A stretch of DNA of 64,000 nucleotides from Escherichia coli. GTDB lineage: Bacteria > Pseudomonadota > Gammaproteobacteria > Enterobacterales > Enterobacteriaceae. Position 1 is the first letter of the stretch. Each line of letters begins with the position of its first letter. Of the stretch, positions 56,117 through 56,182 are shown piece by piece. A program made the position numbers and the translations under genes. The notes beneath the pieces were generated by a model. It was not told the DNA's origin and did no database searches. It was given only the letters and a program-made list of their open reading frames with translations. Location: assembly GCF_003019035.1 (NCBI RefSeq), contig NZ_CP027447.1; one strand, 5' to 3'.

Positions 56117-56130
56117 TGGGGTCAGGGCAC

Positions 56131-56158
56131 CAAAAAAAACCGCCGAACATGTCGGCGG
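56131..56158 (-). terminator. Rho-independent terminator at the end of the nuo operon
   Basis: Stem ccgccga / tcggcgg with a 5-nt loop. The A8 tract on the plus strand gives a U8 tail on the minus-strand transcript, 25 nt downstream of the nuoN stop. Confidence 0.75.
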
Positions 56159-56182
56159 CTTTCTGAATTACGAACTGACAGC

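Follow-up and report, generated by a model that had tools for sequence, protein, structure and literature searches.

The stretch of the Escherichia coli chromosome downstream of the nuo operon raises a question of direction. In the window analysed here (the whole stretch of DNA, 64 kb), yfbM and nuoN converge on a spacer of only 66 bp, whereas K-12 has three further genes, yfbN, yfbO and yfbP, between them. Did this strain lose these genes, or did K-12 gain them? According to the ORF list of the window, the final reading frame of yfbM closes with a TGA at positions 56114-56116. The last gene of the nuo operon, nuoN, annotated by homology and 100% identical to nuoN of strain SCU-301, lies convergently at 56183-57640 on the minus strand. 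The intergenic spacer between them, hereafter the block-free allele, occupies 56117-56182 and has a GC content of 53%. The distance of 66 bp given in the first-pass annotation is exact by these ORF coordinates. The reading frame which that annotation called yfbM does end at 56116, but it is not an intact gene, since only the last 42 codons of a split gene are in the frame that ends there.

So close an abutment might be artefactual, the product of sequencing error or of an assembly in which a region was collapsed or mis-joined, and the frameshift in yfbM could have a similar origin given that a single-base indel beside a G run is a typical type of sequencing error. Against this, positions 55614-56313 are the same base for base in three independent read-run assemblies, frameshift and spacer included, the exact 125-aa yfbM product is recorded on 104 contigs, and the same junction is present in thousands of complete genomes. 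An artefact is therefore refuted for the junction, and we give it practically no credence for the locus as a whole.

The yfbN-yfbO-yfbP segment of K-12

The MG1655 record has the order elaD, yfbK(-), yfbL, yfbM, yfbN(-), yfbO(+), yfbP(+), nuoN(-). The K-12 order given in the first-pass annotation is thus correct, and yfbM does not adjoin nuoN in K-12. Our searches of the whole 64-kb window with the K-12 block (blastn) and with the YfbN, YfbO and YfbP proteins (tblastn) returned no match and no remnant, which bears out the proposal that this strain is without the three genes. In K-12 the segment (b2273-b2275) is accessory and strain-variable and sits exactly at the site studied here. It measures 2,561 bp (K-12 locus L001, 9440-12000), and its GC content of 39.8% is below that of the window (50.9%) and of nuoN-nuoL (56.5%).

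The blastn breakpoints place the exchange between the two alleles precisely. Window positions 54284-56117 correspond to L001 7592-9439 and window positions 56135-57700 to L001 12001-13566, so that homology with K-12 runs to one base past the yfbM stop (56117) and picks up again at 56135, inside an A tract. Between these breakpoints, the alignments show 17 bp in the window (56118-56134, GGGGTCAGGGCACCAAA), in place of which K-12 has the 2,561-bp segment.

The first-pass annotation had suggested looking for short direct repeats at the junction as a sign of insertion or excision. We found neither direct nor terminal inverted repeats, whether at the empty site or at the boundaries of the K-12 block, and transposition and site-specific excision were rejected on the grounds that both states of the junction lack them. 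The block also contains no integrase, transposase or tRNA, its only genes being yfbN, yfbO and yfbP. Because it lacks all of these features, the K-12 block does not qualify as a genomic island or transposon of the classical kind. It does combine an atypical composition (39.8% GC) with a patchy distribution, being present in 946 of 5,426 genomes.

We also searched for the source and function of the segment. YfbP gave sub-threshold Pfam matches to tetratricopeptide-repeat families and YfbN to a UBA-like domain, while YfbO had no Pfam match even below threshold. PADLOC matched none of the three proteins to a defence system, and our literature search on the three genes yielded incidental mentions only. 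The block had no match among phage records. Among plasmids, the whole block was found at 100% identity in one 365-kb E. coli record (CP137936.1), which is possibly an F-prime or a chromosomal segment mis-assigned as a plasmid. In addition, 24 plasmids from Providencia, Proteus and Morganella, all of them predicted to be conjugative, carry hypothetical genes that match 150 bp of yfbP (L001 11221-11370) at 70% nucleotide identity. No donor of the block was identified among the phage and plasmid records.

Frequency of the two junction states

We searched 5,426 complete E. coli genomes with a 901-bp junction query, counting as a match at least 80% coverage, contiguous in one place. The block-free junction was matched contiguously in 4,301 of these genomes, and 946 (17%) carried 80% or more of the K-12 block. 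The block had some match in 1,437 records, 987 of which had a best match of at least 99% identity. The carriers sampled by name were K-12 derivatives, HS, HB101, MC4100 and similar strains, and it is on such strain names in the match lists (K-12, HS, HB101, MC4100) that our description of the carriers as a subset including K-12 is based. Approximately 180 genomes remain, and those sampled include genomes with partial or IS-interrupted blocks and genomes with IS-mediated deletions, which took out elaD-yfbM or elaD-yfbP in NT1F25 and TUM17668. The GTDB representative of E. coli is likewise without the block. The junction in the window is thus the ordinary majority state at a locus that is well annotated, an instance of already known pangenome variation and nothing new in kind.

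Insertion in K-12 or loss in the window

The 17 bp that K-12 lacks are central to the question of polarity. The spacer including these 17 bp occurs with point differences only in SCU-301, H105, O157:H7 TX 265-1, O178:H19, PM4-5 and NT1F25, and the GTDB representative of E. coli carries it as well. Spacer length is 66-68 bp across the E. coli genomes and divergent Escherichia contigs that we compared. Three such contigs (L010, L011 and L014), each encoding a 90%-identical YfbM, have a 68-bp spacer with the same hairpin, L010 and L011 in the gene order rbn-yfbK-yfbL-yfbM-nuoN and L014 in the order rbn-yfbM-nuoN. These outgroups were taken via their YfbM homologues, and their outgroup status rests on divergence together with the source label 'MULTISPECIES [Escherichia]'. 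The nuoN gene of L010 differs from that of every compared E. coli at 65-72 of 1,458 sites, as against 0-35 within E. coli, and NuoN ends in MPMM in the divergent contigs and in MPLM in E. coli. A search of species-representative genomes with a degenerate pattern for the nuoN C-terminus found no genome but the E. coli representative, as the pattern assumed MPLM and other Escherichia end in MPMM.

One could argue that yfbN-yfbO-yfbP were present in a K-12-like ancestor of the window lineage and were later deleted. The rbn-nuoN interval is indeed prone to deletion, as the 1,556 internal bp missing from yfbK in the window and the IS-mediated deletions of elaD-yfbM or elaD-yfbP in NT1F25 and TUM17668 attest. 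Yet a simple deletion cannot make the 17 bp that are present in the window spacer and absent from K-12, the identical junction recurs in unrelated E. coli lineages and in the divergent Escherichia contigs, no remnant of the three genes is left in the window, and just 17% of genomes have the block itself, at close to 100% identity. Loss from a K-12-like ancestor is accordingly already disfavoured, and we consider it very improbable.

Since deletion could not have created the 17 bp and unrelated lineages have one and the same junction, it is the block-free allele that appears to be ancestral, and the K-12 arrangement appears to have arisen by insertion. We therefore favour, with a probability of about 0.9, the reading in which the spacer represents the original 3′ terminus of nuo, a subset of strains including K-12 gained yfbN-yfbO-yfbP, and the lineage of the window never received the segment. 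The direction of the event is inferred from sequence comparison. The first-pass statement that this strain lacks an accessory block stands as far as absence is concerned, but the absence is neither a loss nor a peculiarity of the strain, the block-free state being that of the majority and the likely ancestral one.

The order of events would then be as follows. In ancestral Escherichia, the 3′ end of nuo, with a hairpin and a run of eight U, would have directly adjoined yfbM, a convergent accessory gene. In the subset containing K-12, a low-GC segment of 2.56 kb carrying yfbN-yfbO-yfbP would have been inserted at a point bounded by the yfbM stop and the hairpin's A tract, probably by an illegitimate, non-transposon event, and may then have spread by homologous recombination in its flanking sequences. 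Its entry would have replaced the 17 bp and left only five of the eight residues in the U tract, with the hairpin intact.

A predicted terminator for the nuo operon

A repeat search of the spacer found one notable structure, an inverted repeat with arms at 56136-56146 and 56152-56162. Its core, CCGCCGA-ACATG-TCGGCGG, lies at 56140-56158 and on the plus strand is immediately preceded by eight A residues (56132-56139). Read on the nuoN strand, these elements make up a candidate intrinsic (Rho-independent) terminator for nuo at 56132-56166, minus strand, in which the core is followed by U8 (56139-56132). The stem of 7-8 bp consists entirely of G-C pairs save for a closing A-U pair and carries a loop of 5 nt. 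It begins 23 nt past the nuoN stop, has the U8 immediately 3′ of it, and an AAAG/CUUU extension of the stem runs to 56162. An 81-nt RNA of the nuoN strand folds at -28.6 kcal/mol (z = -4.24, with 0 of 200 shuffled sequences as good), and the hairpin core on its own reaches -11.7 kcal/mol.

The 7-bp stem arms are invariant in 10 or more compared Escherichia sequences, and one loop position and the flanks vary. An invariant stem between variable flanks points to constraint, though not to which function is constrained. The hairpin might for that reason serve mainly as something other than a terminator, for instance as the 3′ end of a small RNA, as a protein-binding palindrome or as a REP-like element, and its constancy in all compared Escherichia is compatible with such roles. 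What speaks against them is that an Rfam scan of the whole 64-kb window returned no family at the gathering threshold, over the hairpin or elsewhere, that the hairpin is single-copy and so no repeated element, and that a GC stem with a 5-nt loop and U8 directly 3′ of it, 23 nt past the nuoN stop, is the geometry of an intrinsic terminator. We regard a mainly non-terminator role as highly unlikely. The hairpin would instead be a canonical intrinsic terminator for nuo, a function predicted from its sequence features.

A simple terminator pattern scan of the window made no call at 56132-56166. The miss probably results from pairing between A8 and T8, as greedy stem extension would consume the T tract, and we judge it to be a limitation of the pattern rule and not evidence against the hairpin. 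Our literature search for a nuoN terminator found nothing specific, only incidental mentions.

The corresponding structure in K-12 (downstream of nuoN, b2276) retains the hairpin, CCGCCGA(A/G)CATGTCGGCGG, at an unchanged distance from the nuoN stop, and the plus-strand tail CTTTCTGA is the same in K-12 and the window. The two differ in one loop base, which is A in the window and G in K-12, and in the tract that follows the stem, which is U8 in the window but U5 and then CUGAAAAAG in K-12. K-12 has U5 instead of U8 because the yfbN-yfbO-yfbP segment starts inside the tract.

The first-pass annotation had further proposed that one hairpin with an A/T tract could serve both convergent transcripts. 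Bidirectional intrinsic terminators between convergent genes are known as a class from the profiling of full-length RNAs in E. coli. The window hairpin resembles this class in being a single hairpin between convergent stops that has an A tract at one flank and a T-rich tail at the opposite flank. It differs in its strong asymmetry, with a perfect U8 for nuoN as opposed to CUUUCUGAAUU for yfbM. In the yfbM direction, the hairpin region folds at -23.9 kcal/mol (plus strand, z = -2.12) and the longest U run in the 3′ tail is three. Given this tail, the hairpin would be expected to act only weakly on yfbM transcripts, with partial termination at best. A terminator shared in this way would be strong on the nuo side and only weak on the yfbM side.

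A split yfbM in a variable interval

The yfbM gene (DUF1877; 55614-56116, plus strand) is a pseudogene in the window, a feature which the first-pass annotation had overlooked. Relative to both K-12 and SCU-301, the nearest complete genome (99.9% identical), one A has been lost near 55984-55991, changing CCGGGAGTG to CCGGGGTG. The 1-bp deletion splits the intact gene of 167 codons into an ORF of 125 aa (55614-55991) and another of 42 aa (55988-56116). Because 104 contigs and the three independent assemblies, which agree with the window throughout 700 bp, carry the same allele, the frameshift is a real lineage-specific pseudogene allele and not a one-off error. YfbM of K-12 matches positions 1-162 of the 163-position DUF1877 profile (PF08974) as a single domain, and the full-length protein of 167 aa is that of PDB 1RYL. 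In the window, YfbM is cut at residue 125 and falls short of a full-length DUF1877 domain (about 163 residues). As the protein is a single domain with a structure in PDB 1RYL, the truncation takes away roughly the last quarter of the fold.

A second lesion, also overlooked before, lies further upstream. The yfbK gene is missing between elaD (52936-54153) and yfbL (54540-55511), an internal deletion having put 20 bp (54264-54283) in place of 1,556 bp of the K-12 gene. Both ends of the gene are left at about 54224-54415, with ~40 bp of the 3′ end and ~130 bp of the 5′ end. This is a genuine deletion with remnants, unlike the clean, remnant-free yfbN-yfbO-yfbP site. An annotated yfbK is absent from SCU-301 and O157:H7 too, and H105 has yfbK but no elaD. 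The elaD gene of the window encodes an intact 405-aa ORF (ElaD/SseL-family deubiquitinase, 52936-54153), which is frameshifted in the SCU-301 annotation and absent from H105. The elaD-yfbL-yfbM stretch as a whole (52936-56116) has 40% GC, the figures for the window and for nuoN-nuoL being 50.9% and 56.5%. The rbn-nuoN interval, comprising elaD, yfbK, yfbL, yfbM and yfbN-yfbO-yfbP, behaves as a low-GC accessory region with a content that varies between strains.

One might go further and read these features jointly. The yfbM stop and the A tract would be a place where foreign DNA enters repeatedly, at the margin of an accessory interval (rbn-nuoN) in decay, yfbN-yfbO-yfbP would be a functional unit of some kind, perhaps immunity- or defence-like, whose arrival also weakened the nuo terminator from U8 to U5, and the lineage of the window, with its frameshifted yfbM and deleted yfbK, would be purging the whole interval. 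We offer this as a speculation and consider it improbable.

The value of these observations lies mainly in annotation hygiene. The gene order of K-12 is not the default at this locus but a minority insertion at yfbM-nuoN, and with K-12 as the reference the ancestral junction will be misflagged as a 'deletion'. As by-products, the lineage gains a correct pseudogene call for yfbM, and rbn-nuoN can be recognised as a variable low-GC region.

Finally, a further difference in annotation was seen at the other end of the window, where positions 7381-8079 hold a 232-aa ORF that appears intact, and SCU-301 is annotated there with a frameshifted GntR-family regulator.
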